A stretch of 64,000 nt of DNA from Acidimicrobiia bacterium (GTDB lineage: Bacteria; Actinomycetota; Acidimicrobiia; Spongiisociales; JAENVV01). Location: positions 824 to 64,823 of the forward strand of contig JBFKPQ010000002.1 in assembly GCA_041628225.1 (NCBI GenBank), written 5' to 3'. This document shows, piece after piece, positions 1 to 13,272 of the stretch (positions within the stretch are counted from its first letter, which is position 1; every line of letters starts with the position of its first letter). Both the position numbers and the translations under genes were made by a program. The notes beneath the pieces were generated by a model. It did not search any database. It was given only the letters and a program-made list of their open reading frames with translations, and had not been told where the DNA came from.

Positions 1-850
1 GAAGGACCGACAGGCCATCATCTTCCGTTCCGGCGTCGACCTTTCTGCCGACGTCCTCGACCAGTCGAGCGATCTCGAACTTCTGGTCCGAGCCGGATCG
101 GGTTTCGACAACGTCGACCTCGCCTACGCCCGGAGGCGCGGCCTTAGGGCAATGCGGGTGCCAGGACCCTCGGCGCAGGCGGTGGCCGAACTCACCTTCG
201 GGCTGATGCTGGCCGTCGCCCGGAAGATCGTCGAAGCCGATCGTGCTGTCCGGCAGGGGTCCTGGCCGAAGCACCAATTGGGCGGACCGCTGCTGGCCGG
301 AAAGACGCTGGGCGTGGTTGGAGCCGGAAATATCGGCGGCCGCGTCGGCGAGCTGGGTGTGGCCTGGGGCATGCGAGTCCTCGGCTGTGTCGAAGAGGTC
401 CACCGTCGGGCGCAGACGGCGGCCATGGCCGAGCGCGGCATCGAGCTCTTGACCGCCGAGCAGGTCATCTCCGAGGCGGACATCGTCACCATCCACACTC
501 CGCTGACCGACGCAACCCGCGACTGGTTCGACCGATCGACGCTGGCGACCTTGCGACCTTCGGCCATCCTCATCAACACGGCGCGCGGCGGCATCGTCGA
601 CGAGGTGGCCTTGTTCGACGCCCTGGCCTCCGGACGGCTCGCGGGAGCCGCACTCGACGTGCACCAGCGGGAGGGCGAGGGCATCATCCCGAAACTCGCC
701 GAGCTCCCGAACGTGGTGCTCACGCCCCACATCGGGGGTATGGCTCTCGAGTCGCAAACCATGATCGGCGAGCGGATCGAGGAGATGTTGGATGCCTACG
801 AACGCGGACGCTTCGACGAAGCCGTCCTCCCGAACGAATTGCTGGTGTGA
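1..850 (+). CDS. D-isomer-specific 2-hydroxyacid dehydrogenase (phosphoglycerate-dehydrogenase-like), 5'-truncated by window edge
   Basis: Frame-2 translation from nt 2 is continuous (..RSGVDLSADVLDQSSDLELLVRAGSGFDNVDLAYARRRGL..) into ORF 152..850. Rossmann motif GVVGAGNIGGRVGELG and the catalytic-domain block LTPHIGG are present. Its stop overlaps the next start (ATGA at 847-850). Confidence 0.85.
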   Translation, partial: KDRQAIIFRSGVDLSADVLDQSSDLELLVRAGSGFDNVDLAYARRRGLRAMRVPGPSAQAVAELTFGLMLAVARKIVEADRAVRQGSWPKHQLGGPLLAGKTLGVVGAGNIGGRVGELGVAWGMRVLGCVEEVHRRAQTAAMAERGIELLTAEQVISEADIVTIHTPLTDATRDWFDRSTLATLRPSAILINTARGGIVDEVALFDALASGRLAGAALDVHQREGEGIIPKLAELPNVVLTPHIGGMALESQTMIGERIEEMLDAYERGRFDEAVLPNELLV

Positions 851-1746
851 CCATGGCCACTGCCGAACACAAACGACACGCCCTCCGCGCCGGCCTCGCG
901 GCCGATCGACCGATGGTGATCGTCGGAGCGCATGACGCCTTGTCTGCCCATCTCATCACCCGCGCCGGATTCGACGGCGTCTGGGTGAGCGGCTTCGGCG
1001 TATCGACCATGACGTACGCGATGCCCGACCTCAATCTCGTCACGATGACGGAGGCTCTCGACGCGGCCCGTCGCATCGACGCCGCCACGCCTCTGCCGGT
1101 GGTGGCGGACTGCGACAACGGGTTCGGCGGCCTCAACAACGTCGTCCGAACCGTGCAGGACTACGAGCGGGGCGGCATTGCCGGCATCTGCATCGAGGAC
1201 AACCTGTTCCCGAAGCGCAACAGCCTGCTCGGCTCGGACATCCGGCGCGAGTTGCTCCCGGTCTCAGAACAGGCGCGACGAATCGCAGCCGGGAAGGCGG
1301 GTCAGGTCACCGACGACTTCGTCGTGATCGCCCGCGTCGAAGCCCTCATCGCAGGCCACGGCGTCGACGAGGCGATCGTTCGGGCCAACGCCTATGCCGA
1401 CGCGGGAGCCGACGCGGTGCTCATCCACTCGCGCGACAAGACGCTCGGCGAGATCGAAGCGTTTCTCGCCGCCTGGGAAGGTGACGTGCCGCTGGTCGTC
1501 GTTCCGACGCTTTTTCCGACCTTCACGCCAGAGGAGCTGTACGGCAAGGGCATACAACTCGTCATCCTCGCCAACCAGCCGATGCGGGCCGCCGTCAAGG
1601 CCATGGAGGACACGCTGGCACTCCTCGCCGAACACCGTGTGGCCTCCGCCGTGGACCCGCACATCGCGTCGGTCGGGCACGTCTTCGACCTCGTGGGAAC
1701 CCGCGAGATGATCCAACGCGAAGCCGCCTACGGCGAAGACGGCTGA
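847..1746 (+). CDS. PEP mutase/isocitrate lyase superfamily enzyme, closely PepM-like (phosphoenolpyruvate phosphomutase homolog) with EDNLFPKRNS instead of the EDKxxxxxNS motif
   Basis: Strong block similarity to Mytilus PEP mutase as recalled: VADCDNGFGGLNNVVRTV, GICIEDNLFPKRNSLL, IARVEALIAGHGVDEAIVRANAYADAGADAVLIHS, VVPT. Translationally coupled to the upstream dehydrogenase. Confidence 0.85.
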   Translation: MTMATAEHKRHALRAGLAADRPMVIVGAHDALSAHLITRAGFDGVWVSGFGVSTMTYAMPDLNLVTMTEALDAARRIDAATPLPVVADCDNGFGGLNNVVRTVQDYERGGIAGICIEDNLFPKRNSLLGSDIRRELLPVSEQARRIAAGKAGQVTDDFVVIARVEALIAGHGVDEAIVRANAYADAGADAVLIHSRDKTLGEIEAFLAAWEGDVPLVVVPTLFPTFTPEELYGKGIQLVILANQPMRAAVKAMEDTLALLAEHRVASAVDPHIASVGHVFDLVGTREMIQREAAYGEDG

Positions 1747-1747
1747 C

Positions 1748-2938
1748 GTGGGGGCCGCTCCCGGCGTCGCGAATCCGGCCGTTGTCATCGGCCTGGGGAA
1801 CCTCGTCGGATTGCAGACCGTTCGTGTGCTGGCCGCACGCGACGTTCCCGTCTACGGCATCGCCGACCATGCCGGTCAGCCGTTCTCCCGGACGCGCCTG
1901 TGCCGAGAGGTGGTGTTCGTCGACACGGCGAGCTCAGCACTCATCGATGCGCTCGAAGACCTCGGTCGGCGCTTGCCGGCCAGGGCGGTGCTCTATCCGT
2001 GTGACGACGTCACGGTGCTCGCCGTGTCCGCGGCGCGGGGTCGCCTCGAGCCCTGGTACCACCTTTCCCTGCCGGATCACGACGTGCTCGAGACCTTGAT
2101 GGACAAGGCGCGCTTCCACGCTTGGGCGACCGAGCAAGGCCTGCCCGTTCCGGTGGGTCGGGTGGTGGCCGACCGGGACGATGTCGGGTCGGCGGCCGCG
2201 TTGCTGAGGTTCCCGGTGGTGATGAAACCAGACCATCGGGGCGAGCGGTGGTTCGCGAACACGGCTGAGAAGGCCATACGCGCCGAGACGCCTGCGGAAC
2301 TCCTGGCCGCCTACGAACGCGTCAGAACCTGGGCGGACGGCTTCACCGTGCACGAATGGATCGAAGGAGGCGAGGATGCCCTGTTCTCGTGCAACGCCTA
2401 TTTCGATCGGCTCGGTCAGCCTCTCGTCACGTTCGTGGCCCGGAAGGTCAGGCAATGGCCGCCGCGCACCGGCCGCAGCTCGCTGGGCGTCGAGGTGCGG
2501 AACGACGAGGTGCTGCGAACGGCCATCGAGCTGTTCCAGAAAGCCGGGATGGTCGGGTTGGCGTACCTCGAGATGAAACGGGACGCGCGGACCGGAGAAC
2601 ACATCATCGTCGAACCGAATGTCGGGCGGCCGACCGGCCGATCGGCCATCGCCGAGGCAGGCGGTGTGGAGCTCGTCTACACGATGTATCGGGATGTGCT
2701 TGGCCTGCCCTTGCCAGACAACCGCCAGCAATCGTACGGCTCGGCGAAGTGGATCTACCTGCGTTGGGATCTCCAGTCGGCGTACCGGGACTGGAGAGAT
2801 GGACGCTTGGGTGTCGGCAGTTGGCTGGCGTCGCTGCGAGGTCCCAAATGGTACGCAATCTGGTCCTGGCGCGACCCCATGCCGTTCGTGGCCGACGTCT
2901 GGCAGGTCATCCGGAAAAGCGCGAGGCGATCGCCGTGA
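1748..2938 (+). CDS. ATP-grasp superfamily carboligase (COG3919-like)
   Basis: Pre-ATP-grasp Rossmann start VVIGLGNLVGLQTVRVL, and ATP-grasp core FPVVMKPDHRGERWF...EWIEGGED...LAYLEMKRDARTGEHIIVEPNVGRP. GTG start 1 nt after the upstream stop. Confidence 0.8.
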   Translation: MGAAPGVANPAVVIGLGNLVGLQTVRVLAARDVPVYGIADHAGQPFSRTRLCREVVFVDTASSALIDALEDLGRRLPARAVLYPCDDVTVLAVSAARGRLEPWYHLSLPDHDVLETLMDKARFHAWATEQGLPVPVGRVVADRDDVGSAAALLRFPVVMKPDHRGERWFANTAEKAIRAETPAELLAAYERVRTWADGFTVHEWIEGGEDALFSCNAYFDRLGQPLVTFVARKVRQWPPRTGRSSLGVEVRNDEVLRTAIELFQKAGMVGLAYLEMKRDARTGEHIIVEPNVGRPTGRSAIAEAGGVELVYTMYRDVLGLPLPDNRQQSYGSAKWIYLRWDLQSAYRDWRDGRLGVGSWLASLRGPKWYAIWSWRDPMPFVADVWQVIRKSARRSP

Positions 2939-4077
2939 ACCGTGTGACCGGCCGATTGGTAGACAACCTGTCCGACCTGGAGCCGGTGCGTGCCGACTGG
3001 GACCGGTTGGCGATAGCGGTCGGTCAACCGTATGCGGCGCCTGCCTGGATGTGGCCCTGGTGGGTCCACAAGGCCGCATCCGACTGGCTCTTGCGGGTGG
3101 TGCTGGTCTTCGACGGTGACGAGCTGATCGGCGTGGCTCCCTTCTTTGTCGACAAGAACGCGTTGGGACGGCCCCGCTTTCGGCTCGTGGGCGCGGTCAC
3201 CACGTCACGGGTGGACGTGCTCAGCGCCTCGGGAAGAGACCGCGAGGTGGCCCGGGTGGTGGCGGAAGTGCTCGGTGCTTCCGATCCGGCGCCCGGAACG
3301 ATTCGCTTCGACGGGATCCCGGCCCGCTCCACCTTCCCGCGCCTGCTGGCCGACAGCTGGCAAGGGCGAGCTCCACAACTGTCCGATCGACACTCGTCTC
3401 CGGCCCCGATCGTGACGCTCGACGCCGATTCGTTCGAGAGCTGGATGGCGTCCAAGAGCAGCAACTTCCGCCAGCAGATGCGCCGGCATGCCCGCAAGAT
3501 CGCCGCCGAGGGGGGCGAGTTCCGCCTGGCGACGGTCGCAACCCTCGAAGATGACCTGCGCTCGTTCGCTCGTCTGCACCATCAGCGATGGGACCGCCGC
3601 GGTGGGTCCAGCGTCCTCGACGCTGGGACGGTTCGCATGTTGACCGACGCCGGGAACCACCTCATTCCATCCGGCCGATTCCTCCTCTGGATGCTCGACA
3701 TCGACGGTCGTGCGGTGAGCAGCCAGATCTTCCTCCAGGCAGGCCGGCAGATCTCCTACTGGCTCGGCGGGTTCGACGACGAAGTGGCCCACCTGAAACC
3801 GTCGATCATCACCATCTATCGGGTCGTCGAAGAAGCCTTTGGCAGCGGAGCCACCGCGGTCGAACTGGGTTCGGGCGGTCAGCCCTATAAGTATCGGTTT
3901 GCCGACGCCACCGAGAGCTTGCGCTGGACCTACCTCTCGTTCGGTCCCGCCGAGCGAGCGGTGGCTGCCGCCGAGATCGCTCCTATGCAGATGCGCGGCA
4001 TACTGGCGGAGCGGTTGTCGGCAGACGTGAAGCGCAAGCTGCGCCGCGCCTATGGGACGGTCCGGCGCGGGGTTTGA
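2935..4077 (+). CDS. FemAB-like GNAT acyltransferase (Acetyltransf_6/BioF2-like, CelD-type)
   Basis: GTG at 2935 overlaps the ATP-grasp stop (GTGA). Family-typical C-terminal region NFRQQMRRHARKIAAEGGEFRL...HQRW...YWLGGFDDE...AVELGSGGQPYKYRFAD. The long upstream part of ORF 2356..4077 is rejected as an out-of-frame overlap. Confidence 0.75.
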   Translation: MNRVTGRLVDNLSDLEPVRADWDRLAIAVGQPYAAPAWMWPWWVHKAASDWLLRVVLVFDGDELIGVAPFFVDKNALGRPRFRLVGAVTTSRVDVLSASGRDREVARVVAEVLGASDPAPGTIRFDGIPARSTFPRLLADSWQGRAPQLSDRHSSPAPIVTLDADSFESWMASKSSNFRQQMRRHARKIAAEGGEFRLATVATLEDDLRSFARLHHQRWDRRGGSSVLDAGTVRMLTDAGNHLIPSGRFLLWMLDIDGRAVSSQIFLQAGRQISYWLGGFDDEVAHLKPSIITIYRVVEEAFGSGATAVELGSGGQPYKYRFADATESLRWTYLSFGPAERAVAAAEIAPMQMRGILAERLSADVKRKLRRAYGTVRRGV

Positions 4078-4115
4078 GCACCGGTACCATGAGGTATTCC
4101 TCGAGAGATCACCTC

Positions 4116-7100
4116 ATGACCACGTCCGAACTCACCGAAGGCTTCGGCCCCAACATCTGGCTCGTCGACGAGATGTATCGGAAGTACGTCGATGCGCCGA
4201 ACTCGGTCTCCGAGGCGTGGCGTGAGTTCTTCGCCGATTACACGCCCGGACTGCCGTCGGCGACCATCCGGTCCGAAGCGCCCGCTCCATCTTCGGCGGC
4301 AGCACCAGTTCCGCCCGACGGTGGCGCCGAATCATCTCTCCCGCCCGGCGCCGAGCCGCTCCGTGGTGTCGCGGCGCGCATCGCCGAGCGCATGGACGAC
4401 AGCCTCACCGTGCCGACGGCCACCTCGGTACGAACCATCCCGGCGAAGTTGCTCGAGGTCAACCGACGCATCTTGAACAACCAGCTTCGGCGCCTCATCC
4501 ATGGCGGCAAGGTGAGCTTCACGCACCTGATCGGCTGGGCCGTCGTCAGAGCGATCGCCGAGCAACCGGAGATGAACGTCGCCTACGGCGAGTTCGATGG
4601 GAAGCCCCATCTCATCCGCCACGGCCACGTGCATCTCGGGATCGCCATCGACGTGGCCCGAAAGGACGGTTCTCGCAGCCTGCTGGTGCCGAACATCAAG
4701 GGCGCCGATCAGTTGGACTTCCAGCAGTTCTGGCTGGCCTATGAGGACGTGGTGCAGCGGGTTCGCTCGAACCAGATCAGCCCGGAGGACTTCGCGGGCA
4801 CGACCGTGACGCTGACGAATCCCGGCACGATCGGGACCGTCCAGTCGGTCCCGCGCCTCATGGACGACCACGGGCTGATCGTGGGCGTGGGTGCCATCGG
4901 CTATCCGCCCGAATACTCGGCGTCCGATCCCCGGTTCCTCGCACGCATGGGTATCGGGCGGGTCATCACCTTGACGTCCACCTACGACCATCGCGTCATC
5001 CAAGGTGCCGGATCGGGGATGTTCTTGGCACGCATCCACGAACTCCTGTTGGGCGCCGACGGCTTTTACGACGAGATCTTCCGGTTCATGGGTGTTCCGT
5101 ATACGCCCGCCCGATGGGCGGCCGACGACAACCCGCCCGTCGGATCGCCCGAGTGGGCGGAGAAGCAGGCCCGGGTCTTCCGACTCATCAACATGTATCG
5201 AGTCCGCGGCCATCTCATCGCCGACCTCGATCCGCTCCGCCAGTCCGGCCCGGCCCTCCATCCCGAACTCGACCCGCTCACCTACGGGCTCACGATTTGG
5301 GACCTCGATCGCGAATTCGCCACGGGCGGATTGCTCGGTCGCCCGACCATGGCGCTCGGTGACATCTTGGGAACGCTCCGTGACGCGTATTGCCGGGCCA
5401 TCGGCATCGAGTACATGCACATCCAAGAGCCCGAGCAGAAGGCGTGGATTCAGGAACGGGTCGAGGGTCCGCAGCCCGGCCTGTCACGGGAAACCCGCCT
5501 CCGGCTGCTCCGCAAGCTGAATGAAGCGGAGGCGTTCGAACGGTTCCTCCACACCAAATACGTCGGGCACAAGCGGTTTGGCCTCGAAGGCGCCGAGAGC
5601 CTGATCCCGCTCCTCGACACGTTGCTCAATGCGGCCGTCGAGGACGAGATGGACGAGGCCGTCATCGGCATGGCCCACCGGGGACGCCTCAACGTGCTGG
5701 CCAACATCATCGGCAAGTCATACGCCCGGATCTTCCGGGAGTTCGACGACGTGGCCGTTGAACAGACCCAGGGCTCTGGAGACGTCAAGTATCACCTCGG
5801 CTCGACCGGAACCCACGTGACGCCGTCCGGCAAGGAGCTGGCGGTCGCGGTCGCCGCCAATCCTTCGCATCTCGAGGCCGTCGATCCGGTGCTCGAGGGC
5901 ATCGTCCGGGCCAAGCAGGAGCGGCGCGGAAAGGTCGGACACCATCAGGTCCTTCCGGTGCTGCTGCATGGCGATGCGGCTTTCGCCGGGCAAGGCGTGG
6001 TCGTCGAGACGCTCAATCTCTCCCAGCTGCGGGGCTATCGGACGGGGGGAACCGTCCACATCGTCATCAACAACCAGGTGGGATTCACGACGTCGACCGT
6101 CGACGCCCGATCATCGTTCTACGCAACCGACGTCGCCAAGACGGTGCAGGCGCCGATCATCCATGTCAACGGCGACGATCCCGAAGCCGTTGCCAAGGCC
6201 ACCATTCTGGCGTTCGCCTTCCGGCAGGCCTTCAACAAGGACGTCGTGATCGATCTCATCTGCTACCGGCGCCGCGGCCACAACGAGGGCGACGAGCCGT
6301 CGTACACCCAGCCGCTGATGTACCGGATCATCGACCAACGCCGCTCCGTGCGGAAGCTGTACATGGAGAAGCTCGTCAACACGAAGGAGATCTCGATCGA
6401 CGAGGGCGAGCAGTTGCTGGACGAATACCGGGCGATCCTCGACCGAGCCTTTTCCGAGACGGACGGCCTCACTCCGTCCGTGCTCGACGCCCCCACGCCG
6501 GCGGCCGCCGAAGGTGTCGTCGAGACGGCCGTTCCCGCCGATCGGCTGGAACGCATCGTGCAGGCGATCTCGACGCCACCGGATGGCTTCACGTTGCATC
6601 CGAAGCTGGTGAGGACCGTCGAGATGCGCAAGACGCTCTTCGAGCGGGGGGAGGTCGACTGGGGACTCGCCGAGGCGCTGGCGTTGGGGGCAACCGCCCT
6701 GGAAGGCCATTGGGTTCGCGTGGCCGGCGAGGATTCGCGGCGTGGCACGTTCAGCCATCGACATGCGGCCCTGGTCGACTACGAGACGGGCCAGTCGTGG
6801 GTAGCCCTCCAGGAGCTGGCCGAGGGAACCGCCCGGGTTCGAATCGTCGACTCGCTCCTCTCCGAGTTCGCCGCCGTCGGGTTCGAGTACGGCTATTCGA
6901 TCGAGATGCCGGAGGCACTCACGATCTGGGAGGCCCAGTTCGGCGACTTTGTCAACGGAGCGCAGGTGATCATCGACCAGTTCATCGCCGCCGGTGAGGA
7001 CAAGTGGGGTCAGACCAGCAATCTCGTGATGCTGCTGCCCCATGGGTTCGAAGGGCAAGGGCCCGAGCATTCGTCGGCGCGGATCGAACGATTCCTCCAA

Positions 7101-7655
7101 TCGGCCGCCGAGGACAACATGCGGATCGTCGTGCCTTCGACGGCCGCATCCTATTTCCATGCGCTGCGCCGGCAGGTGAAGTCCCGTGTCGCCAAGCCGC
7201 TGATCGCTTTCACCCCCAAGAGCCTCCTCCGGACGCGTGCCTCCTACTCGGAGCGGATCACGCTCACCGACGGGAGATTCGAAGCGGTCATCCCGGCTGC
7301 AGAGCCGGCCGAGCCGCGACGTGTCGTGTTCTGCAGCGGCAAGTTCTTCTATGACCTCGCCGACGCCCGAACCGACGAGAGTGTCGCGTTGGTTCGGATC
7401 GAGCAGCTCTACCCGTTCCCGGTGACCGAGGTGGCCGAGGTGCTGGCTGCGGCGCCCTCCGACGCCGAGATCATGTGGGCACAGGAGGAACCGTCCAACA
7501 TGGGCGCATGGACCTTCGTGCGTCCTCGGCTCGCCGATCTGGCCGGCCGGCAGATCCGCTTGGTGGCGCGGGCCGAATCGGCGAGTCCCGCGACGGGCAG
7601 CCACCGCTTGCATGACCTCGAGCAGGGCGATCTCGTCGACGAGGTGTTCGGCTAG
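4116..7655 (+). CDS. kgd: multifunctional 2-oxoglutarate dehydrogenase E1 component with fused succinyltransferase-like domain (actinobacterial Kgd/OdhA type)
   Basis: N-terminus MTTSELTEGFGPNIWLVDEMYRKYVDAPNSVSEAWREFFADY matches the mycobacterial Kgd start. An E2-like catalytic region (DHRVIQGAGSGMFL) is followed by the TPP-dependent E1 domains. About 1180 aa. Start at 4116 preferred over the TTG at 4074. Confidence 0.9.
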   Translation: MTTSELTEGFGPNIWLVDEMYRKYVDAPNSVSEAWREFFADYTPGLPSATIRSEAPAPSSAAAPVPPDGGAESSLPPGAEPLRGVAARIAERMDDSLTVPTATSVRTIPAKLLEVNRRILNNQLRRLIHGGKVSFTHLIGWAVVRAIAEQPEMNVAYGEFDGKPHLIRHGHVHLGIAIDVARKDGSRSLLVPNIKGADQLDFQQFWLAYEDVVQRVRSNQISPEDFAGTTVTLTNPGTIGTVQSVPRLMDDHGLIVGVGAIGYPPEYSASDPRFLARMGIGRVITLTSTYDHRVIQGAGSGMFLARIHELLLGADGFYDEIFRFMGVPYTPARWAADDNPPVGSPEWAEKQARVFRLINMYRVRGHLIADLDPLRQSGPALHPELDPLTYGLTIWDLDREFATGGLLGRPTMALGDILGTLRDAYCRAIGIEYMHIQEPEQKAWIQERVEGPQPGLSRETRLRLLRKLNEAEAFERFLHTKYVGHKRFGLEGAESLIPLLDTLLNAAVEDEMDEAVIGMAHRGRLNVLANIIGKSYARIFREFDDVAVEQTQGSGDVKYHLGSTGTHVTPSGKELAVAVAANPSHLEAVDPVLEGIVRAKQERRGKVGHHQVLPVLLHGDAAFAGQGVVVETLNLSQLRGYRTGGTVHIVINNQVGFTTSTVDARSSFYATDVAKTVQAPIIHVNGDDPEAVAKATILAFAFRQAFNKDVVIDLICYRRRGHNEGDEPSYTQPLMYRIIDQRRSVRKLYMEKLVNTKEISIDEGEQLLDEYRAILDRAFSETDGLTPSVLDAPTPAAAEGVVETAVPADRLERIVQAISTPPDGFTLHPKLVRTVEMRKTLFERGEVDWGLAEALALGATALEGHWVRVAGEDSRRGTFSHRHAALVDYETGQSWVALQELAEGTARVRIVDSLLSEFAAVGFEYGYSIEMPEALTIWEAQFGDFVNGAQVIIDQFIAAGEDKWGQTSNLVMLLPHGFEGQGPEHSSARIERFLQSAAEDNMRIVVPSTAASYFHALRRQVKSRVAKPLIAFTPKSLLRTRASYSERITLTDGRFEAVIPAAEPAEPRRVVFCSGKFFYDLADARTDESVALVRIEQLYPFPVTEVAEVLAAAPSDAEIMWAQEEPSNMGAWTFVRPRLADLAGRQIRLVARAESASPATGSHRLHDLEQGDLVDEVFG

Positions 7656-8527
7656 AGCCGAGGTGGTGGGAGGTACTTGGCCTTCTTGAACCCTCCGGAC
7701 CGTTTGGGTCGCAGCACCCACGTCGAGCCCTTCTTGGCTTCGAACGGCCTCGCCAGCACCGTCCCTCGACGAGCCAGGAGATCCATGGTTTCGGTGATCA
7801 CATCACCGTGCGTGCAGATGGCGGCGCGGACATCCGAGAGCGACTCGATCAGCCCGAGGGTGAACCGCGGGTCGGCTCCCTCGGCAAGGGCTTCGTGGTA
7901 CTCGATCTCGACGCCGATCGCCGCCGAGAGGGGTTCGAGCGTCTGCCAGCAACGTGTGTACGGGCTGGACAGCAGCCGAACCAGGCCGTCGTCGGCGAAC
8001 TCCTCGCGCAGCAGCTGAGCCTGGACGCGGCCTTCGGGTGAGAGCGGACGCGTCCGGTCGTCGCCCGTCCAGGTGCGGCGGATGCCCGCCTCGGCATGCC
8101 GGATGATGAGAGTCTTCGGCTTGGGCAGCCACCATTGGTCGGGCAATCCGGCCATGAACTCCCGGTCCCGTTCGTAGGTCAGGTGCTTCAGCGCCTTCTT
8201 TGGGGTGAGCCACGCGACTTCGTCGACTTCCGAGTTCTTCCGGAACGTCCCGGCGGTTGCCTCCATCGCCCAGTAGTGGACGACCTTCGGGTACCCGCGC
8301 GTCGTCTCGTAGTCGATGGCTCCCAGTGCCGGGCCGAGCCGGCACACGTAGCCGGTCTCTTCGGCGACCTCGCGGCGAGCGGCTCGACGGGGCGTCTCGC
8401 CCGGATCCACTTTGCCTTTCGGGAAGGACCAGTCGTCGTACCCGGGACGGTGCGCGAGCAGGACTTCGACGCGTCCTTCATTCCGCCAGACGATTCCTCC
8501 GGCCGCAACGATGTTCTTCTTGGCCAA
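7652..8527 (-). CDS. bifunctional NUDIX hydrolase / histidine phosphatase (MutT1-like)
   Basis: N-terminal Nudix box GKVDPGETPRRAARREVAEETG. C-terminal histidine phosphatase RHAEAG...SSPYTRCWQTL...THGDVI. Convergent with kgd, with overlapping stops. Confidence 0.8.
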   Translation of the reverse strand: MAKKNIVAAGGIVWRNEGRVEVLLAHRPGYDDWSFPKGKVDPGETPRRAARREVAEETGYVCRLGPALGAIDYETTRGYPKVVHYWAMEATAGTFRKNSEVDEVAWLTPKKALKHLTYERDREFMAGLPDQWWLPKPKTLIIRHAEAGIRRTWTGDDRTRPLSPEGRVQAQLLREEFADDGLVRLLSSPYTRCWQTLEPLSAAIGVEIEYHEALAEGADPRFTLGLIESLSDVRAAICTHGDVITETMDLLARRGTVLARPFEAKKGSTWVLRPKRSGGFKKAKYLPPPRL

Positions 8528-8530
8528 CGG

Positions 8531-8707
8531 CTACTCCCATAGCGACCTGCGTCGGAGGACCTTGGCGTCCGTGGGACGCTCCTCGCGCAAGTCGATGATG
8601 ATATCGCCGCAGCGACGACATGCCGTCCGCACGATGCCACCGCCGACCGCCACGGGGGGTTTGAAGTCGTGCACCGTGCAGGACCGGCGGTTGCGGAGAC
8701 GCGACAT
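8531..8707 (-). CDS. small zinc-ribbon-like protein (C-x2-H...C-x2-C), hypothetical
   Basis: MSRLRNRRSCTVHDFKPPVAVGGGIVRTACRRCGDIIIDLREERP. Sits 3 nt upstream of the MutT1-like gene on the same strand. The start could instead be 8773. Confidence 0.4.
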   Translation of the reverse strand: MSRLRNRRSCTVHDFKPPVAVGGGIVRTACRRCGDIIIDLREERPTDAKVLRRRSLWE

Positions 8708-8806
8708 GAGTCTGCGGCGCTGCCGGTGGCGGCCGCCTGGTCGTCTGTCGCGCGCGTCGGGTCGCTCGGTCATCGGGTCGGCGCTCCAGCGTAGTGCACG
8801 CAGGTC

Positions 8807-9352
8807 TCAGCTTGGTCGATCGGCGAACCGGGTCACGATCCAGCGGTGGGCTTGGTCGACGGTGTCGACCGTGTGGATGAGACTGCCGTCGGTGCCCAGA
8901 CGGCCCGTCAACTCGGGAATGAGCGTTCGCCAGAGTTCGCCAACCGTCACGACCGGCCGTGCGGGTCGGCTGCCCAACTGTGCGATGAAGGCATCGTTCC
9001 ACGCCACCATCAGTTCCGTCAGCGTCCCGATCGATCCGGGCATGGCGACGACGCCGTCCGACATCGTCACGAGATCGTGGATGCGTTCGGTCAGTGAGGC
9101 ATGCGGTCGTTCGATCGCCACCCATGGGTTGGCACCGGAACGATCGGGAAAGAGCGCAGGTGCGGTCACCCCGATGACGGTTCCTCCGCGTTCGGCGGCA
9201 CCGCGCGACGCGGCGGCCATGACACCCGCGTAGCCGCCCGTGGCAACCGTGAAGCCGGATTCGGCCAGGAGACTGCCGAGGCGGTGGGCGGCGCGGTAGG
9301 TCGGGTGGTCCGGTGCGGGTTCTGAGCCCCCGAATACGGCGATCGTCGGCAT
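8807..9352 (-). CDS. LOG family protein (TIGR00730 Rossmann-fold, cytokinin riboside 5'-monophosphate phosphoribohydrolase-like)
   Basis: PTIAVFGGS...GGYAGVM...PGSIGTLTEL motifs. Start at the internal Met (residue 42 of ORF 8807..9475); longer alternatives are possible. Confidence 0.7.
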   Translation of the reverse strand: MPTIAVFGGSEPAPDHPTYRAAHRLGSLLAESGFTVATGGYAGVMAAASRGAAERGGTVIGVTAPALFPDRSGANPWVAIERPHASLTERIHDLVTMSDGVVAMPGSIGTLTELMVAWNDAFIAQLGSRPARPVVTVGELWRTLIPELTGRLGTDGSLIHTVDTVDQAHRWIVTRFADRPS

Positions 9353-9389
9353 GGGGCGGCGATGGTACCGGGTAGGCTCGGCTTCGACC

Positions 9390-10004
9390 ATGTCGATCCT
9401 GCTCACCGTTGCTGGCTTGGCCACGGCCGTGGTATTCGTGTTCCTCGGTGGATGGGCCATACGCGAGTCGGGCAAGGTGCGGGGACCGCACTACCGCCGT
9501 CTCCTGTTCGGTATAGGTCTGGCCGCCGTCTTTCATGCGGCCGTCGGTGTATTCGTCGCCATCTTCGGGTTCGTGCACATGGAGGCCGGATTCACCGATT
9601 CGATGGTCGTGGCGGCGTGGTACTCCTTGGGCCTGCTCACAGGGTCCGGTGCGTTGGGATGGTTCGCCTACCGCACGACCACGACGATTTCGAGGCCGCT
9701 CCAGAAGGCGGAACGGCTCATGGGCGTGATGACCGACCAACTGCCGGAGCGGTCCGTGGCCGATCTCGGCCTGACGGCCCGAGAGATCGAGGTCGTGAAG
9801 GTGATCTCGTCGGGGGAGATGTCCGATGCCGGCATCGCAGATCGGCTGTTCATCTCCAAGGCGACCGCGGCCACCCATGTGCGCAACATCCTGCGCAAAG
9901 CCGAACTGAGCAACCGTCGGGACCTCATGCTGCTGTCGGGCTGGAAAGACTTGCCTGCTTCGCCGCCCGACATGACTCCGGGACCGACTCCGCTCAGTCC
10001 GTGA
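9390..10004 (+). CDS. LuxR-family HTH transcriptional regulator with N-terminal transmembrane segments
   Basis: C-terminal REIEVVKVISSGEMSDAGIADRLFISKATAATHVRNILRKAEL (LuxR/GerE HTH). Three predicted hydrophobic helices at the N-terminus. Confidence 0.7.
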   Translation: MSILLTVAGLATAVVFVFLGGWAIRESGKVRGPHYRRLLFGIGLAAVFHAAVGVFVAIFGFVHMEAGFTDSMVVAAWYSLGLLTGSGALGWFAYRTTTTISRPLQKAERLMGVMTDQLPERSVADLGLTAREIEVVKVISSGEMSDAGIADRLFISKATAATHVRNILRKAELSNRRDLMLLSGWKDLPASPPDMTPGPTPLSP

Positions 10005-12054
10005 GCAACGAACGCAGGGCCGTCTCGATCTGCGTCGTGTCGATCAGGCCGTGTTCCTCCACCGCGAAATGCGGCATGGGCGCATCGAATCCGCACACCC
10101 GCACGATCGGCGCTTCGAGGGCATAGAGAAGCTCTTCGGCCACGGTGGCGGCGATCTCGGCTGCGATTCCGGCGGTGCGCGGTGGCTCTTGCACCAGGAG
10201 CAGTCTTCCGGTGCGAGCCACGCTGGCCAGCACCGTTTCCCGATCCCACGGGAACACGGTGCGGAGGTCGATGACCTCCACCGAGGCATCGATCGACTCG
10301 GCGGCCGTGATGGCCTTCGGCACCATCCCGCCATACGTGACGATCGTGGCGTCATCGCCGGGACGCCGAATGCGGGCTCGGCCGATCGGCAGGGTGAAGT
10401 GATCGATGGGCACGTCGGAGCGGCCCGCCCGATACAGGACCTTGGGCTCGAGAAAGATGACGGGATCGTTGGATTCGACCGCGGCCGCCAGAAGACCCTT
10501 GGCGTCGACCGGGGTGGACGGGACGATCACGATGAGCCCCGGTGCGTGGGCGAAGAAGGCCTCCGGGCTGTCGCTGTGGTGCTCGTGGGCGCGGATGCCT
10601 GCGCCGCTGGGCATGCGTACGACCACCGGCACGTCCACGGTGCCGCGTCCGCGGTAGCGCATGCGGCCGAGGTGACTGACGATCTGATCGAACGCCGGGT
10701 AGACGAAGCCGTCGAACTGGATCTCCGCGATCGGACGTCCGCCCGCCATGGCCATGCCCAGCGCCGTTCCCACGATGCCGGACTCGTTCAGTGGCGTGTC
10801 GATGACTCGGTCCGGCCCGAAGGCGTCTTGAAGTCCTTCCGTGATCCGGAAGACCCCGCCGACCCGACCGACGTCCTCGCCGAGGACGACCGTCTCCGGA
10901 TGGCGTTCCATGGCTTCCGTGAGTGCGGCCGTGAGCGCTTCGGCCATGTTCATCGGTCGCCGCGACCCGTCGGGGAGCGAATCGCGTTCGGGTTCGGCGA
11001 TCTCGTGGTCTTCGAGACCGCCCTCGGGCTCGCCGCGGCCGCGCTGGGCGGCGTAGAGCTGATCGGCGAGCAGGCTCGGGATCCTGGTGTAGGTATGGCG
11101 GACCGCGTCCGCTCGGTCGGGGAGCGGGCGATCTTCCAGAGCGCGGATCGCCTCTTCCGCTTCGTCGGCGGCCTCGTCGGCGACCGACGTCACGTCGATC
11201 GGTGCCTGGCGTAGTTCGAGGTGACGCCGGAGGCGGTCGAGCGGATCGAGCGCACGCCAGGCCTCGACCTCCGTGACATCTCGGTAGAGCGTCGGATCGT
11301 CCGCCGTGGCGTGGGGTCCGTATCGGTAGGTGATCGCCTCGATGAGGGTTGGGCCGTCCCCGCGGCGGGCGCTTTCGACTGCCGTCGTGGTTGCGACCCA
11401 CACGGCCAGGGGGTCCATTCCGTCGACCTGAACTCCCTCGAAGCCGTACGCCTTGGCCTTGACGGCGATCGACGAGGCCGCGGTTTGCTGGGCGAAGGGC
11501 ACCGAGATGGCGTAGGAGTTGTTCTGACAGAAGAACACGTTCGGCGTCTTCCACACGCCGGCGAAGTTCAGGCCGGCGTGGAAGTCGCCTTCCGAGGTGG
11601 CGCCGTCCCCGAAATAGGTCATGACGACCGTCGAGCGTCCCGCGAGACGCTCCTGGTAGGCGTGCCCCACCGCATGGGGTATCTGCGAGGCGATGGGGAC
11701 CGTCGTCAACCCCATCCGCCAGCGGTCGGGGGCCCACGCCGGGTTCGGGACCCCTTTCCAATACCCGAGAACGACGTCCATCGGCATGCCTCTGGCGAGT
11801 TGGACCCCGTGCTCCCGGTAGGACGGGTAGATCCAGTCGTCAGGACGGAGGGCGAGCGCCGAGCCGATCTGCGCCCCCTCTTGGCCCTCGAGCGGTGGGT
11901 ACGTTCCGATGCGTCCCTGACGCTGCAGCGAGAGGGCCTTCCGATCGAAAGCACGGGCCCGTGCCATGAGTCGATAGATCGTGTGCAGGTCGTCGATCGT
12001 GAGGCCTGGGTCGTCGCCGACCAATCGGCCGTTCGGGTCGAGTACTCGCAACAT
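9994..12054 (-). CDS. TPP-dependent 2-oxoacid dehydrogenase E1 component, fused alpha-beta subunits (pyruvate/branched-chain/acetoin type)
   Basis: E1-alpha region (YRLMARARAFDRKALSLQRQGRIGTYPPLEGQEGAQIG...YREHG) is joined without a stop to an E1-beta region (GEDVGRVGGVFRITEGL...IDTPLNESGIVGTALGMAMAG...FPWD). Start chosen at Met135 of the ORF so as not to overlap the divergent hisC. Confidence 0.8.
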   Translation of the reverse strand: MLRVLDPNGRLVGDDPGLTIDDLHTIYRLMARARAFDRKALSLQRQGRIGTYPPLEGQEGAQIGSALALRPDDWIYPSYREHGVQLARGMPMDVVLGYWKGVPNPAWAPDRWRMGLTTVPIASQIPHAVGHAYQERLAGRSTVVMTYFGDGATSEGDFHAGLNFAGVWKTPNVFFCQNNSYAISVPFAQQTAASSIAVKAKAYGFEGVQVDGMDPLAVWVATTTAVESARRGDGPTLIEAITYRYGPHATADDPTLYRDVTEVEAWRALDPLDRLRRHLELRQAPIDVTSVADEAADEAEEAIRALEDRPLPDRADAVRHTYTRIPSLLADQLYAAQRGRGEPEGGLEDHEIAEPERDSLPDGSRRPMNMAEALTAALTEAMERHPETVVLGEDVGRVGGVFRITEGLQDAFGPDRVIDTPLNESGIVGTALGMAMAGGRPIAEIQFDGFVYPAFDQIVSHLGRMRYRGRGTVDVPVVVRMPSGAGIRAHEHHSDSPEAFFAHAPGLIVIVPSTPVDAKGLLAAAVESNDPVIFLEPKVLYRAGRSDVPIDHFTLPIGRARIRRPGDDATIVTYGGMVPKAITAAESIDASVEVIDLRTVFPWDRETVLASVARTGRLLLVQEPPRTAGIAAEIAATVAEELLYALEAPIVRVCGFDAPMPHFAVEEHGLIDTTQIETALRSLLTD

Positions 12055-12127
12055 GGGTCCGATTCTGCCGGACGGCTCCGGCCGATGCCGGGTTGGAACG
12101 TCCCAATCCCTCGGTAGCATCGGGGGA

Positions 12128-13204
12128 ATGTCTGTCCGTGTCCGATCCGATGTGGCCGCGCTACCGCCGTACGTGCCGGGACGTGCCATCGCCGAGGTGG
12201 CGGCCGAACTGGGTATCGAGACGTCCGAGATCATCAAGTTGGCGTCCAACGAATCGCCCGAGCAGCCCTTCCCGGAGGTGATCGCCGCGGTCGCCGAATC
12301 GGCGGCCGGATTGCATCGATACCCCGACATGGCGTGCCGCGTGCCGGCGGAAGCCGTGTCCGAGGCGCTGGGAATCGATCCCGACAACCTCTGGTTCGAT
12401 GCCGGGAGTTCGGCGCTCTTGCGAACGATGGCGCTCGCTGTGGGAGGGCCGGGCACGTCTGCGGTGATGCCGTGGCCGTCGTTCGTGGTCTACCCTCTCG
12501 GTTCGCAGCTCGCCCACACCGAGTCGATCCGGGTGCCGCTCACCGACCATCACCTCGACCTGGCCGCGATGGCTTCGGCCGTCCGGTCGGACACGACGAT
12601 CCTGTACGTCTGCAACCCGAACAACCCGACGGGGACCGTCCGCGGTGGGGTGGACGTGGTCGCGATGCTCGATGACATCCCTGACGACGTGCTCGTCGTC
12701 GTCGACGAGGCCTACGGCGAGTACGTCGTCGATCCCGGCTACCGGTCGCTCGTTCCTGTGGCCCTCGAACGCCGCAACGTCGTCGTGACTCGCACGTTCT
12801 CGAAGATCTACGGCCTGGCGGCACTTCGGATCGGCTATGCGGTCGGGCACCCCGACACGCTCCGGGAGATCCGCAAGGCGCAGGCGCCGTTCTCGGTGTC
12901 GACGCCGGCACAGGTTGCCGCGGCGGCCGCCGTGCGACTCGTCGATCGCGTGCGCCAGCGTGTCGCGGCGAATCGCACCGGAGTCGAGTCGTTGGAGGCA
13001 GGGTTCGCCGACATGGCGCTTCGCTTCATTCCATCGCAGGCGAACTTCGTCGCCACCCTGCCCGACGACCCGACGGCCGTTGCTGAGCGGCTGAACGATG
13101 CCGGCATCATCACACGGCCCCTGGGCGAGCTGCTCCGGATCACCGTCGGGTCTCCCACCGAGCGAGAACGGCTGCTGCAGGCCATAGCGGCAGGTTTGGG
13201 CTAA
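12128..13204 (+). CDS. hisC: histidinol-phosphate aminotransferase-like class I/II PLP aminotransferase
   Basis: MSVRVRSDVAALPPYVPG...KLASNESPEQPF...YPD, plus a TFSKIYGLAALRIGY lysine region. RBS GGGGGAA before the ATG at 12128. Confidence 0.75.
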   Translation: MSVRVRSDVAALPPYVPGRAIAEVAAELGIETSEIIKLASNESPEQPFPEVIAAVAESAAGLHRYPDMACRVPAEAVSEALGIDPDNLWFDAGSSALLRTMALAVGGPGTSAVMPWPSFVVYPLGSQLAHTESIRVPLTDHHLDLAAMASAVRSDTTILYVCNPNNPTGTVRGGVDVVAMLDDIPDDVLVVVDEAYGEYVVDPGYRSLVPVALERRNVVVTRTFSKIYGLAALRIGYAVGHPDTLREIRKAQAPFSVSTPAQVAAAAAVRLVDRVRQRVAANRTGVESLEAGFADMALRFIPSQANFVATLPDDPTAVAERLNDAGIITRPLGELLRITVGSPTERERLLQAIAAGLG

Positions 13205-13272
13205 GTCGCCCGCGTTTCTAGCATCGGGTTCCGACATCGTGTCGGCTGGACGTTCTCCGTGAAAGGCCTCTC

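Follow-up and report, generated by a model that had tools for sequence, protein, structure and literature searches.

An Asn-for-Lys change in the PEP mutase motif is a conserved hallmark of a widespread subfamily in phosphonate-type gene clusters

The window, a stretch of 64,000 nucleotides on contig JBFKPQ010000002.1 of an Acidimicrobiia bacterium, begins within a tightly packed operon that comprises, in this order, genes for a PGDH-like 2-hydroxyacid dehydrogenase, a PepM-like protein, an ATP-grasp carboxylate-amine ligase and a GNAT. The genes and the motif have the following coordinates:

2..850, plus strand: PGDH-like 2-hydroxyacid dehydrogenase, 3' part, 282 codons (Pfam 2-Hacid_dh_C, E 7e-52)
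853..1746, plus strand: PepM-like gene, 297 aa (PF13714, E 2.8e-57); an alternative GTG start at 847 overlaps the upstream stop
1195..1224, plus strand: EDNLFPKRNS motif, start of the active-site gating loop and counterpart of EDKX5NS in canonical PEP mutases
1201..1203, plus strand: AAC, coding for Asn where Mytilus PepM has Lys116; Asn in 120/120 homologues
1216..1218, plus strand: Arg codon CGC, Thr121 in Mytilus; invariant in the clade, co-varies with K116N
1748..2938, plus strand: ATP-grasp carboxylate-amine ligase, 396 aa; GTG start 1 nt past the PepM stop
2935..4077, plus strand: GNAT-type acyltransferase, 380 aa (Acetyltransf_6, E 2e-25; FemAB_like, 27.3 bits vs a cut-off of 27)

The dehydrogenase gene is cut at its 5' end by the start of the window (the full gene, in L041, encodes 317 aa). 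Its product had PGDH as best NCBIfam match, below the cut-off, and the PGDH 1wwk as best PDB match (E 1e-54); the stop codon at 848-850 lies 2 nt before the ATG of the PepM-like gene. For the ATP-grasp ligase, no Pfam match was found and the NCBIfam ATP-grasp matches were weak; profile comparison with the PDB gave D-Ala-D-Ala ligase (8e-9) and CPSase (2e-6), and the source databases call its homologues 'carboxylate--amine ligase' or 'D-aspartate ligase'. The GTG start of the GNAT gene overlaps the stop of the ATP-grasp gene (GTGA). The GNAT had no significant match among solved structures, and as part of the operon it is specific to the lineage, being present in the locus of the closest relative (L045) and in no other locus. 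A promoter and terminator scan of window positions 1-4600 gave nothing beyond the shuffled expectation. In the window's lineage a divergently transcribed APH-family kinase lies near the cluster, and an HTH_67 regulator is encoded nearby.

The PepM-like protein has the alpha/beta-barrel fold of the ICL/PEP mutase superfamily (PF13714), and its closest matches in sequence and structure are PepMs. In the PDB it matched 5unc (E 1e-65), 2dua (4e-63) and 1m1b (7e-58). The AlphaFold model (pLDDT 87.8) gave TM-scores of 0.90 to 5unc and 0.89-0.90 to 1pym/1s2t, the gating-loop block 121-130 having a pLDDT of only 61. The canonical PepMs (EC 5.4.2.9) of Mytilus edulis (1M1B/1PYM) and Streptomyces platensis (5UNC) share this fold (TM-score 0.89-0.90) at 38-43% identity. 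Among the NCBIfam models, PepM ranked above the hydrolase (271 vs 236 bits): the protein reached 271.1 bits with TIGR02320 (PEP_mutase), below the equivalog cut-off of 319.55, and 235.6 bits with the phosphonopyruvate hydrolase model TIGR02321 (cut-off 374.4). A representative of the same clade, P0121, reached 276 bits with TIGR02320.

Window positions 1180-1239 translate to AGICIEDNLFPKRNSLLGSD, with EDNLFPKRNS encoded at 1195-1224 and its Asn by AAC at 1201-1203; this residue is Asn117 when counted from the ATG at 853 and Asn119 when counted from the GTG at 847, the numbering used in the first-pass annotation. In HMMER alignments with solved structures, EDNLFPKRNS stands without gaps opposite EDKLFPKTNS of Mytilus PepM (1m1b), EDKRFPKVNS of Streptomyces platensis PepM (5unc) and EDKTFPKDTS of phosphonopyruvate hydrolase (2dua). 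Since the motif position is homologous and aligned, chance is no concern. The first-pass annotation had reported EDN in place of EDK, a single transversion (AAC for AAG) away, with spacing and terminal NS conserved relative to a quoted Mytilus sequence (ACLEDKLFPKTNSLH); the quoted sequence is correct, and EDNLFPKRNS and EDKLFPKTNS correspond column for column. It described the rest of the protein as very PepM-like; the PF13714 match covers the full length, and the other catalytic residues are intact.

The loop spacing ED-x-xFPK-x-NS is common to canonical PepM and the window protein, which differs from it in Lys116 (Asn), Thr121 (Arg), Leu48 (Phe) and Phe124 of the bacterial consensus (Leu); the diagnostic EDKX5NS motif of genome mining is absent. 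Kept are S46, D58, D85, D87, E114, D115, K120, N122, S123, R159 and H190 (Mytilus numbering). The Mg2+ site (D58, D85, D87, E114) is invariant in the window protein and in 17/17 clade members, and so are, in the clade, the phosphoryl-handling residues R159, H190, N122 and S123 together with loop K120 and S46. With residue roles taken from a review (PMC7916636), all catalytic residues listed there for PepM are invariant in the clade; among the residues with an assigned catalytic role plus K116, only K116 is changed. The loop signature of the subfamily is Asn for Lys as the first gating-loop residue and Arg, in all 17 of the 17 clade members, at position 121. Arg or Lys occupies this position in 23 of 31 EDN representatives vs 21 of 89 EDK representatives (Fisher p 9e-7, uncorrected for phylogeny), and Arg121 is possibly a relocated positive charge within the gating loop. 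To our knowledge, Lys116 is present in every characterised PepM, and no mention of the EDN motif or of Lys116 was found in the literature searched.

An error in sequencing or assembly, or a recent AAG to AAC mutation that inactivates an otherwise canonical PepM gene, would fit the single transversion that separates the two codons and the view that the canonical motif is invariant in PepM (PMC6697681), but the probability of either is negligible. Four independent assemblies, which come from different runs, carry the same 894-nt gene (0 mismatches, AAC), each of the 120 homologues nearest to it in the database (67-97% identity, several phyla) has EDN[LVTI]FPKRNS and Asn occupies the motif position in all genomic loci of the clade. 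Across homologous loci the codon is AAC 29 times and AAT seven times; this synonymous variation indicates that Asn is under selection, in a clade old enough to span several phyla. The four assemblies rule out the sequencing error that had been considered in the first-pass annotation, and the homologues and loci with both codons, together with the intact catalytic set, rule out a private inactivating mutation. The remaining option named there, a genuine functional variant, is supported by the tree and the nearest-neighbour test described below. A pseudogene was rejected on the same assembly, homologue and codon evidence.

The nearest homologues span Actinomycetota, Chloroflexota, KSB1 and others. 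In a neighbour-joining tree of 153 sequences (100 bootstraps) the window's subfamily was recovered with 100% support; it forms a single cluster at 50% identity (412 bits vs 283 bits for the next match) and a wide gap in score separates it from every EDK cluster. A larger grouping, of 55 tips and with almost all of the non-K variants, had 0% bootstrap support, and one supported clade for all EDN variants was rejected. Since this deep grouping was unsupported, we relied on a motif-masked nearest-neighbour test instead, in which K versus non-K followed whole-sequence similarity, as is expected for a genuine variant.

EDK is missing from roughly one third of the nearest PepM-like sequence clusters, among them EDN..CS forms that adjoin Ppd. 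Distant non-EDK relatives are fused to NTP_transf_3, to CTP_transf_like or to a PGDH-like dehydrogenase, as in the PepM-dehydrogenase fusion P0177; the relatives with Ppd neighbours or fusions are only about 50% identical to the window's clade, or less. At L022, an EDN..CS PepM-nucleotidyltransferase fusion is followed directly by a TPP enzyme that matched the phosphonopyruvate decarboxylase family best (301 bits, cut-off 312.5), and at L025 a CDP-alcohol phosphatidyltransferase and an aldehyde dehydrogenase lie beside a fusion of this type. EDN homologues could, according to the first-pass annotation, have been known non-mutases; the EDN relatives were found in hallmark PEP mutase contexts instead.

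Within the clade, 28 of 29 loci have the dehydrogenase gene immediately before the PepM-like gene, and 24 have an ATP-grasp gene within 5 kb of it. About 25 genomes share this core of dehydrogenase, PepM-like and ligase genes, in most cases together with two P-loop kinases and as part of cell-surface polysaccharide loci, in which a priming transferase, Wzy, a flippase and glycosyltransferases are recurrent neighbours. The kinases that recur outside the window's lineage are thymidylate-kinase-like and HprK/FomB-like; the best NCBIfam match of the latter is FomB phosphonate monophosphate kinase (E 5e-6), far below the cut-off. Since both kinases are absent from the 64-kb window and from 2.6 kb upstream, the five-gene cassette model does not apply as such to the window's organism. 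Three sulfotransferase families recur around the cassette in related loci; they are not adjacent to it and are absent from the window. Phosphonopyruvate decarboxylase, AEP transaminase and nucleotidyltransferase genes were not found beside the PepM-like gene in the window or the clade loci, and the recurrent neighbour families included neither a PalB-type aminotransferase nor a phosphonate transporter.

The Lys-to-Asn change is, in sum, a conserved hallmark of a widespread subfamily in phosphonate-type gene clusters. Judging from gene context and residue conservation, the protein is probably (about 60%) a working PEP mutase of a distinct, conserved subfamily, whose product is drawn off by reduction to phosphonolactate. 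PEP would be converted to phosphonopyruvate by the standard PepM set, with Mg2+ bound via D58/D85/D87/E114 and the phosphoryl group handled via R159/H190/N122/S123, all of which are present. The PepM equilibrium favours PEP more than 500-fold (PMC12871164). The translationally coupled PGDH-like dehydrogenase, which we propose to be a phosphonopyruvate reductase and the coupling enzyme, would reduce the unfavourable product to phosphonolactate and thereby pull the reaction forward. This step is suggested by the adjacency of the two genes, by the PepM-dehydrogenase fusion in a relative and by the literature, in which a 2-hydroxyacid dehydrogenase is an accepted coupling enzyme of PepM (PMC8942020, PMC12871164); with the dehydrogenase upstream, the PepM-like gene is coupled in the genome to a type of enzyme that consumes phosphonopyruvate, the other types being Ppd, aminotransferases and homocitrate-synthase-like enzymes. 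Phosphonopeptide clusters typically encode ATP-grasp ligases (PMC11867202), and the one encoded here may, as its family membership suggests, join the carboxylate to an amine acceptor. From family membership, too, the GNAT and the divergent APH-family kinase would complete the cluster in the Acidimicrobiia lineage; in most other lineages, the thymidylate-kinase-like and HprK/FomB-like kinases join the core in cell-surface polysaccharide loci. On the basis of the kinases and the polysaccharide loci, we speculate that a glycan is decorated with phosphonate. Counted against the mutase reading were the score below the NCBI PepM equivalog cut-off (271 vs 319.55 bits), the similarity to the hydrolase (E 4e-63), which almost equals that to PepM (E 1e-65), the fact that the Ppd and fusion contexts belong to relatives about 50% identical or less, the Lys116 of the characterised PepMs, the lack of Ppd, AEP transaminase and nucleotidyltransferase genes beside the clade's own PepM-like gene, and the 0% bootstrap support of the deep non-K grouping.

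The arrangement resembles that of the valinophos cluster of Streptomyces durhamensis (VlpA PepM, VlpB and ATP-grasp VlpF), in which a PepM-family gene also adjoins genes for a PGDH-like dehydrogenase and an ATP-grasp ligase. VlpB is a PGDH-like dehydrogenase proposed to reduce phosphonopyruvate (PMC8942020, PMC12871164, PMC12723261), and the VlpB-type pairing, defined as PepM adjoining a PGDH-like 2-hydroxyacid dehydrogenase (PMC8942020), is found here. The likeness extends to an acyltransferase only in the window's lineage. Unlike in valinophos, kinases of the P-loop or APH type are the partners, and polysaccharide loci, not small-molecule clusters, house most of the gene sets; among the conserved neighbours there was no obvious match to vlpC, vlpD or vlpE, which lead to 2,3-dihydroxypropylphosphonate. 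Since valinophos-type clusters were found by screens requiring EDKX5NS, VlpA is expected to be canonical. With the PntC-type Ppm-nucleotidyltransferase pathways to phosphonoglycans and phosphonolipids, the clade has the cell-surface glycan context in common, and the distant EDN relatives share NTP_transf_3 or CTP_transf_like fusions and Ppd neighbours with them. The window's clade, however, has no nucleotidyltransferase, Ppd or AEP transaminase but a dehydrogenase, an ATP-grasp ligase and kinases, which implies a different chemistry of activation and attachment.

A non-mutase paralogue of the PepM/PPH branch, either hydrolase-like or catabolic (phosphonolactate to phosphonopyruvate and on to PEP, or to pyruvate and phosphate), is unlikely. 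The protein is nearly as similar to the hydrolase 2dua as to PepM and stays under the PepM equivalog cut-off, one source calls a homologue 'Phosphonopyruvate hydrolase' (an automatic name) and an HTH_67 regulator lies nearby in the window's lineage; moreover, with an equilibrium >500-fold toward PEP (PMC12871164), a dehydrogenase and a mutase would suit catabolism. PalA of Variovorax sp. Pal2 (2DUA/2HJP) belongs to the same superfamily branch (42% identity, TM-score 0.88) and its mobile loop contains R-x-EL, as does that of the window protein. However, PalA (EDKTFPKDTS) retains Lys and has Thr in place of Asn122, whereas the window protein shows the opposite, with Lys lost and Asn122 kept. The clade retains Asn-Ser throughout, the 236 bits with the hydrolase model are far under the cut-off of 374, and a PalB-type aminotransferase or a phosphonate transporter was not seen in the loci. 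PalA serves phosphonoalanine catabolism; the conserved partners of the clade, a ligase that consumes ATP and kinases, belong to loci for polysaccharide biosynthesis, which speaks for a biosynthetic setting. The hydrolase-like function raised in the first-pass annotation is, therefore, not supported.

A PepM fold with a new substrate, for example a sulfo analogue or one for a C-C lyase-type reaction, could account for the lost Lys charge. PepM is known to bind sulfopyruvate, and the surroundings of the cassette repeatedly include three sulfotransferase families. In addition, the motif departs exactly where PepM (K) and lyases (Q) differ, E. coli PrpB aligning as EDQVGAKRCG, and the neighbouring EDN..CS group has Cys at the position of the catalytic Cys of lyases. 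PrpB/ICL enzymes share superfamily and fold, with about 30% identity, and in the alignment ED-Q-VGA-KRCG they have 'KR' in common with the clade. Their Cys-Gly-His and Glu188, however, are replaced by PepM-type Asn-Ser-Leu and His: the loop reads K-R-N-S-L instead of K-R-C-G-H as in E. coli PrpB, so that the lyase K-[KR]-C-G-H loop and the lyase residues C123, G124, H125 and E188 are absent. The sulfotransferases are neither adjacent to the cassette nor present in the window, and the EDN..CS relatives adjoin a phosphonopyruvate decarboxylase homologue and nucleotidyltransferases. Since N122, S123, R159 and H190, which bind the phosphoryl group, are all retained, sulfonate chemistry has a low probability, and we consider a new substrate of either kind improbable. 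Slightly more improbable still is a catalytically dead or regulatory protein kept for a structural role. The departure from a motif regarded as diagnostic would agree with it, but metal- and phosphoryl-binding residues that are invariant across a clade spanning phyla are not expected in a dead enzyme, and the gene is tightly linked in an operon to a plausible coupling enzyme.

Nearly all natural phosphonates arise by way of PEP mutase, whose EDKX5NS motif was reportedly defined by Yu in 2013. In its exact form the motif has served as a strict filter for producers (PMC6697681, PMC8942020, PMC12723261). Since EDN is the hallmark of a conserved subfamily, this filter would miss the subfamily, and the NCBI equivalog model likewise rejects the window's clade. 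Should EDN (and EDN..CS) proteins prove to be active mutases, a sizeable and taxonomically broad set of phosphonate pathways is invisible to such surveys, Lys116 is no catalytic requirement and the definition of the enzyme has to be refined; the compact dehydrogenase-mutase-ATP-grasp cassette, with or without two kinases, would then be a target for the discovery of a new phosphonate that probably decorates a glycan. The full combination falls somewhat short of an even chance: that EDN proteins are true PEP mutases able to do without Lys116, for which Arg121 possibly compensates, and that an undescribed cassette pathway puts a phosphonolactate-derived group on cell-surface polysaccharides of soil Actinomycetota, Chloroflexota and others. 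If it is true, motif-filtered surveys have undercounted and mis-scoped biological phosphonate synthesis. Among the carriers of the dehydrogenase-PepM-ligase cassette is a named species whose genome has been sequenced, Blastococcus colisei.

The PepM-like gene of the window lies in an operon of four genes:

2-850, plus strand: 2-hydroxyacid dehydrogenase resembling D-3-phosphoglycerate dehydrogenase (PGDH), upstream of the PepM-like gene and cut by the window start
853-1746, plus strand: PepM-like ORF of 297 aa, full-length PF13714 PEP_mutase (E 2.8e-57)
1195-1224, plus strand: motif EDNLFPKRNS in the PepM-like ORF, codons GAG GAC AAC CTG TTC CCG AAG CGC AAC AGC
1748-2938, plus strand: ATP-grasp enzyme, downstream, profile match to D-Ala-D-Ala ligase (8e-9)
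2935-4077, plus strand: GNAT of the Acetyltransf_6/FemAB-like type, further downstream

The genes adjoin or overlap one another: 2 nt separate the dehydrogenase stop (848-850) from the PepM ATG at 853 (an alternative GTG start at 847 overlaps the upstream stop), 1 nt separates the PepM stop (1744-1746) from the ligase GTG at 1748, and ligase and GNAT have a GTGA overlap (2935-2938) in common. The best solved relative of the dehydrogenase is PGDH 1wwk (E 1e-54), and homologues of the ATP-grasp enzyme bear the names 'carboxylate--amine ligase' or 'D-aspartate ligase'. On contigs reaching past the window start, the operon is preceded by a divergently oriented APH-family kinase gene, a 152-aa ORF and the gene of an HTH_67 regulator. 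In the closest relative (Acidimicrobiia MAG, 81% identity) the genes, GNAT included, stand in the identical order; in the other fetched loci the GNAT was not found by tblastn.

In HMMER alignments against solved structures, EDNLFPKRNS paired gap-free with EDKLFPKTNS of the Mytilus PEP mutase (1m1b), EDKRFPKVNS of the Streptomyces platensis PEP mutase (5unc) and EDKTFPKDTS of phosphonopyruvate hydrolase (2dua); E. coli 2-methylisocitrate lyase has EDQVGAKRCG in the same position. By these alignments, the third motif position is N in the window protein, K in PepM and the hydrolase and Q in the lyase, whereas the ninth is N in both the window protein and PepM, T in the hydrolase and C, the catalytic Cys, in the lyase. 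The first-pass annotation had thus described the motif correctly in all details (sequence, position 1195-1224, AAC codon and Mytilus alignment), and had offered a functional variant, an inactivating mutation or a sequencing error as explanations. An error is contradicted by four independently assembled contigs from four sequencing runs (SRR29257404, -05, -07 and -21), in all of which the 894 nt of the gene are identical (0 mismatches) and the critical codon is AAC. Nor is the change a private inactivating mutation: of 5.8 billion proteins searched, 1,489 matched at E <= 1e-20, and EDN[LVTI]FPKRNS was present in all of the best 120 of them (67-97% identity). Named sources among the matches listed were Acidimicrobiia, Chloroflexota/Limnocylindria, KSB1, Blastococcus colisei and Geodermatophilus marinus. 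From species-representative genomes, 34 loci were recovered by a scan, and every locus at >= 62% identity with a readable motif region had the same motif. In these loci the Asn codon was AAC in 29 cases and AAT in 7, and Asn has therefore been kept through synonymous change. The substitution is real and conserved.

The clade of the window protein (here the EDN clade; Asn for Lys116 in Mytilus numbering) collapses entirely to a single full-length representative, P0121 (412 bits), in a protein library with 50%-identity clusters, and the runner-up scored 283 bits. The 150 best representatives comprised 91 with EDK..NS, 20 with EDN..NS, 17 with EDN..CS, 3 with EDQ..NS and a few each with EDA, EDS, EDH and EDG; non-EDK forms thus make up roughly one third of the nearest PepM-like clusters. 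Neighbour joining (153 sequences, 290 columns, 100 bootstraps, PrpB root) gave 100% bootstrap for the subfamily of the window protein and no bootstrap support for a larger group with nearly all non-K variants. With the ten motif columns masked, the nearest neighbour was non-K for 41 of 44 non-K representatives and K for 86 of 92 K representatives (Fisher p 1e-24). The K/non-K split is therefore an old one that follows the sequence as a whole.

The catalytic set is intact. W44, S46, G47, D58, D85, D87, E114, D115, K120, N122, S123, R159, E161 and H190 are invariant in the clade and take in the metal-binding, phosphoryl-binding and loop residues given for PepM in a review (PMC7916636), in which Lys116 is given no role. 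The differences from PepM lie together in the gating loop or close to it: N stands for K116, R for T121 (without exception in the clade) and F for L48, and position 124 is L. R or K at 121 was found in 23 of 31 representatives with Asn116 versus 21 of 89 with Lys116 (p 9e-7, phylogeny not corrected for), a pairing compatible with a positive charge that may have been shifted within the loop. An AlphaFold model of the window protein (pLDDT 87.8, pTM 0.88) gave TM-scores of 0.90 to 5unc, 0.88 to 2dua and 0.90 to 1pym; its lowest-confidence part is the loop block 121-130, as expected for a mobile lid. With the NCBI models, the protein reached 271 bits for the PepM equivalog (cut-off 319.55) and 236 bits for the hydrolase (cut-off 374), and because both scores are below the cut-offs, 'family protein' is its sole automatic annotation. 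In every structural and residue check it agreed with PepM, apart from the motif and the curated HMM cut-off; since it fails these two, it falls outside PepM by the operational definition of the field.

Certain domain fusions are almost exclusive to true Ppm (Rice et al., PMC6697681). Non-EDK relatives bear such fusions, in L022 and L025 together with the neighbours given; P0156 and P0190 are further fusions, unusual like that of P0177:

P0122, P0123, P0132, P0136: EDN..CS, NTP_transf_3 fusion
P0155: EDN..NS, NTP_transf_3 fusion
P0162: EDNLFPKTNS, N-terminal cytidylyltransferase-like domain, as in Fom1
P0177: 623 aa, EDQKHPKRNS (EDQ..NS), PGDH-like 2-hydroxyacid dehydrogenase fusion
P0156: 801 aa, EDNQHPKRNS, fused to an AMP-binding adenylation enzyme
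P0190: 623 aa, EDHQHPKRNS, fused to an AMP-binding adenylation enzyme
L022 (Rokubacteria contig), 9995-13559: EDNLFPKKCS PepM-nucleotidyltransferase fusion, directly followed by a TPP enzyme, then another nucleotidyltransferase
L025 (Acidobacteria contig), 4922-10201: EDNLFPK[KR]CS PepM-nucleotidyltransferase fusion, flanked by genes for a CDP-alcohol phosphatidyltransferase on one side and an aldehyde dehydrogenase on the other

The best family of the L022 TPP enzyme is phosphonopyruvate decarboxylase (301 bits, cut-off 312.5). P0177 is a Rosetta-stone link for the dehydrogenase-PepM pairing of the window. The suggestion that EDN homologues may be non-mutases is opposed by the Ppm-type fusions and by the contexts of L022 and L025, which are associations only, in relatives about 50% identical or less. 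In the EDNLFPK[KR]CS sister group, neither the Lys nor the 'essential' Asn122 is kept, and Cys occupies the position of the lyase catalytic Cys; these proteins are NTP_transf_3-fused despite both changes.

The neighbourhood, scored by tblastn across the fetched loci, is conserved. In 28 of 29 clade loci the dehydrogenase gene immediately precedes the PepM-like gene, and an ATP-grasp gene is <= 5 kb away in 24 (the remainder are mostly truncated contigs, L032 being a real exception). The one clade locus in which the dehydrogenase, the putative coupling enzyme, was not found is L011 (Solirubrobacteraceae MAG), where two thymidylate-kinase-like copies flank the PepM-like gene (9270-11554). A P-loop protein of ~227 aa with the motifs GPDGAGKST and FDRHF (profile match to thymidylate kinases, 1e-8) occurs in 23 loci, and a protein of ~385-400 aa with an HPr-kinase-like P-loop domain (7e-7 against PDB; GWSKGGKTE) in 24. 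The latter matched no Pfam family, and its best NCBIfam match, the FomB phosphonate monophosphate kinase, is far below cut-off (E 5e-6, 26 bits); its gene almost always adjoins the cassette of dehydrogenase, PepM-like and ATP-grasp genes (e.g. L015:6997-8205; L001:3663-4820, minus strand). Neither kinase was found in the window by tblastn. Recurrent families around the cassette are a priming sugar transferase, GT4, Wzy, a flippase, three sulfotransferase families and a beta-helix protein, with Poly_export, GNVR, GT2 and phytase-like genes in KSB1-type loci; these surroundings are cell-surface polysaccharide loci.

The best-supported reading is that the EDN clade is a functional PEP mutase subfamily, and the window protein most probably works as PepM. 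The adjacent dehydrogenase would then draw off the PepM product as phosphonolactate, 2-hydroxyacid dehydrogenases being recognised PepM coupling enzymes (PMC8942020, PMC12871164), and the ATP-grasp ligase, of a type typical of phosphonopeptide clusters (PMC11867202), may process the phosphonolactate. The kinases may have roles in this pathway, and its product may be destined for a glycan. A hydrolase-like or catabolic function is the main rival, made less likely by the fact that Asn122-Ser123 are retained and by a context that is biosynthetic and ATP-consuming. The EDN motif was not mentioned in the literature searched, and three genome-mining studies (PMC6697681, PMC8942020, PMC12723261) explicitly discard non-EDK sequences. 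The clade would gain in interest if a new phosphonate turned out to be the product of the cassette, and also if other non-EDK families proved active.

In two KSB1-type loci, phytase-like (PF02333) genes are located between the PepM-like and ATP-grasp genes (L039:10965-12023, L040:11031-12089) and again after the HprK-like gene (L039:14519-14986, L040:14644-15987), adjoined by a giant cadherin/Big_9 repeat protein. Kinase genes of the APH family (PF01636) are found repeatedly near the cassette (L001:1196-2239; L041:1505-2395 and L046:2080-2994, both minus strand); in the lineage of the window the kinase gene and the operon are transcribed divergently, in at least 7 other loci the kinase gene is a few kb away, and tblastn detected no similarity between the former and the latter. 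Another fetched locus, L024, has two canonical EDKKFPKDNS PepM-like genes at 3588 and 6530, ~3 kb apart. Behind the GNAT, the window encodes a 1,193-aa ORF (4074-7655, plus strand; longest form from a TTG overlapping the GNAT stop), which by its sequence we take to be an actinobacterial-type, SucA/Kgd-like 2-oxoglutarate dehydrogenase E1; a similarly placed long gene follows the GNAT in the closest relative (L045 3789-6911). By inspection of the translations, a 291-aa ORF (7652-8527, minus strand) resembles a Nudix and a histidine-phosphatase domain in one chain, and an 820-aa ORF (9994-12456, minus strand) resembles a fusion of the alpha with the beta subunit of a 2-oxoacid dehydrogenase E1.
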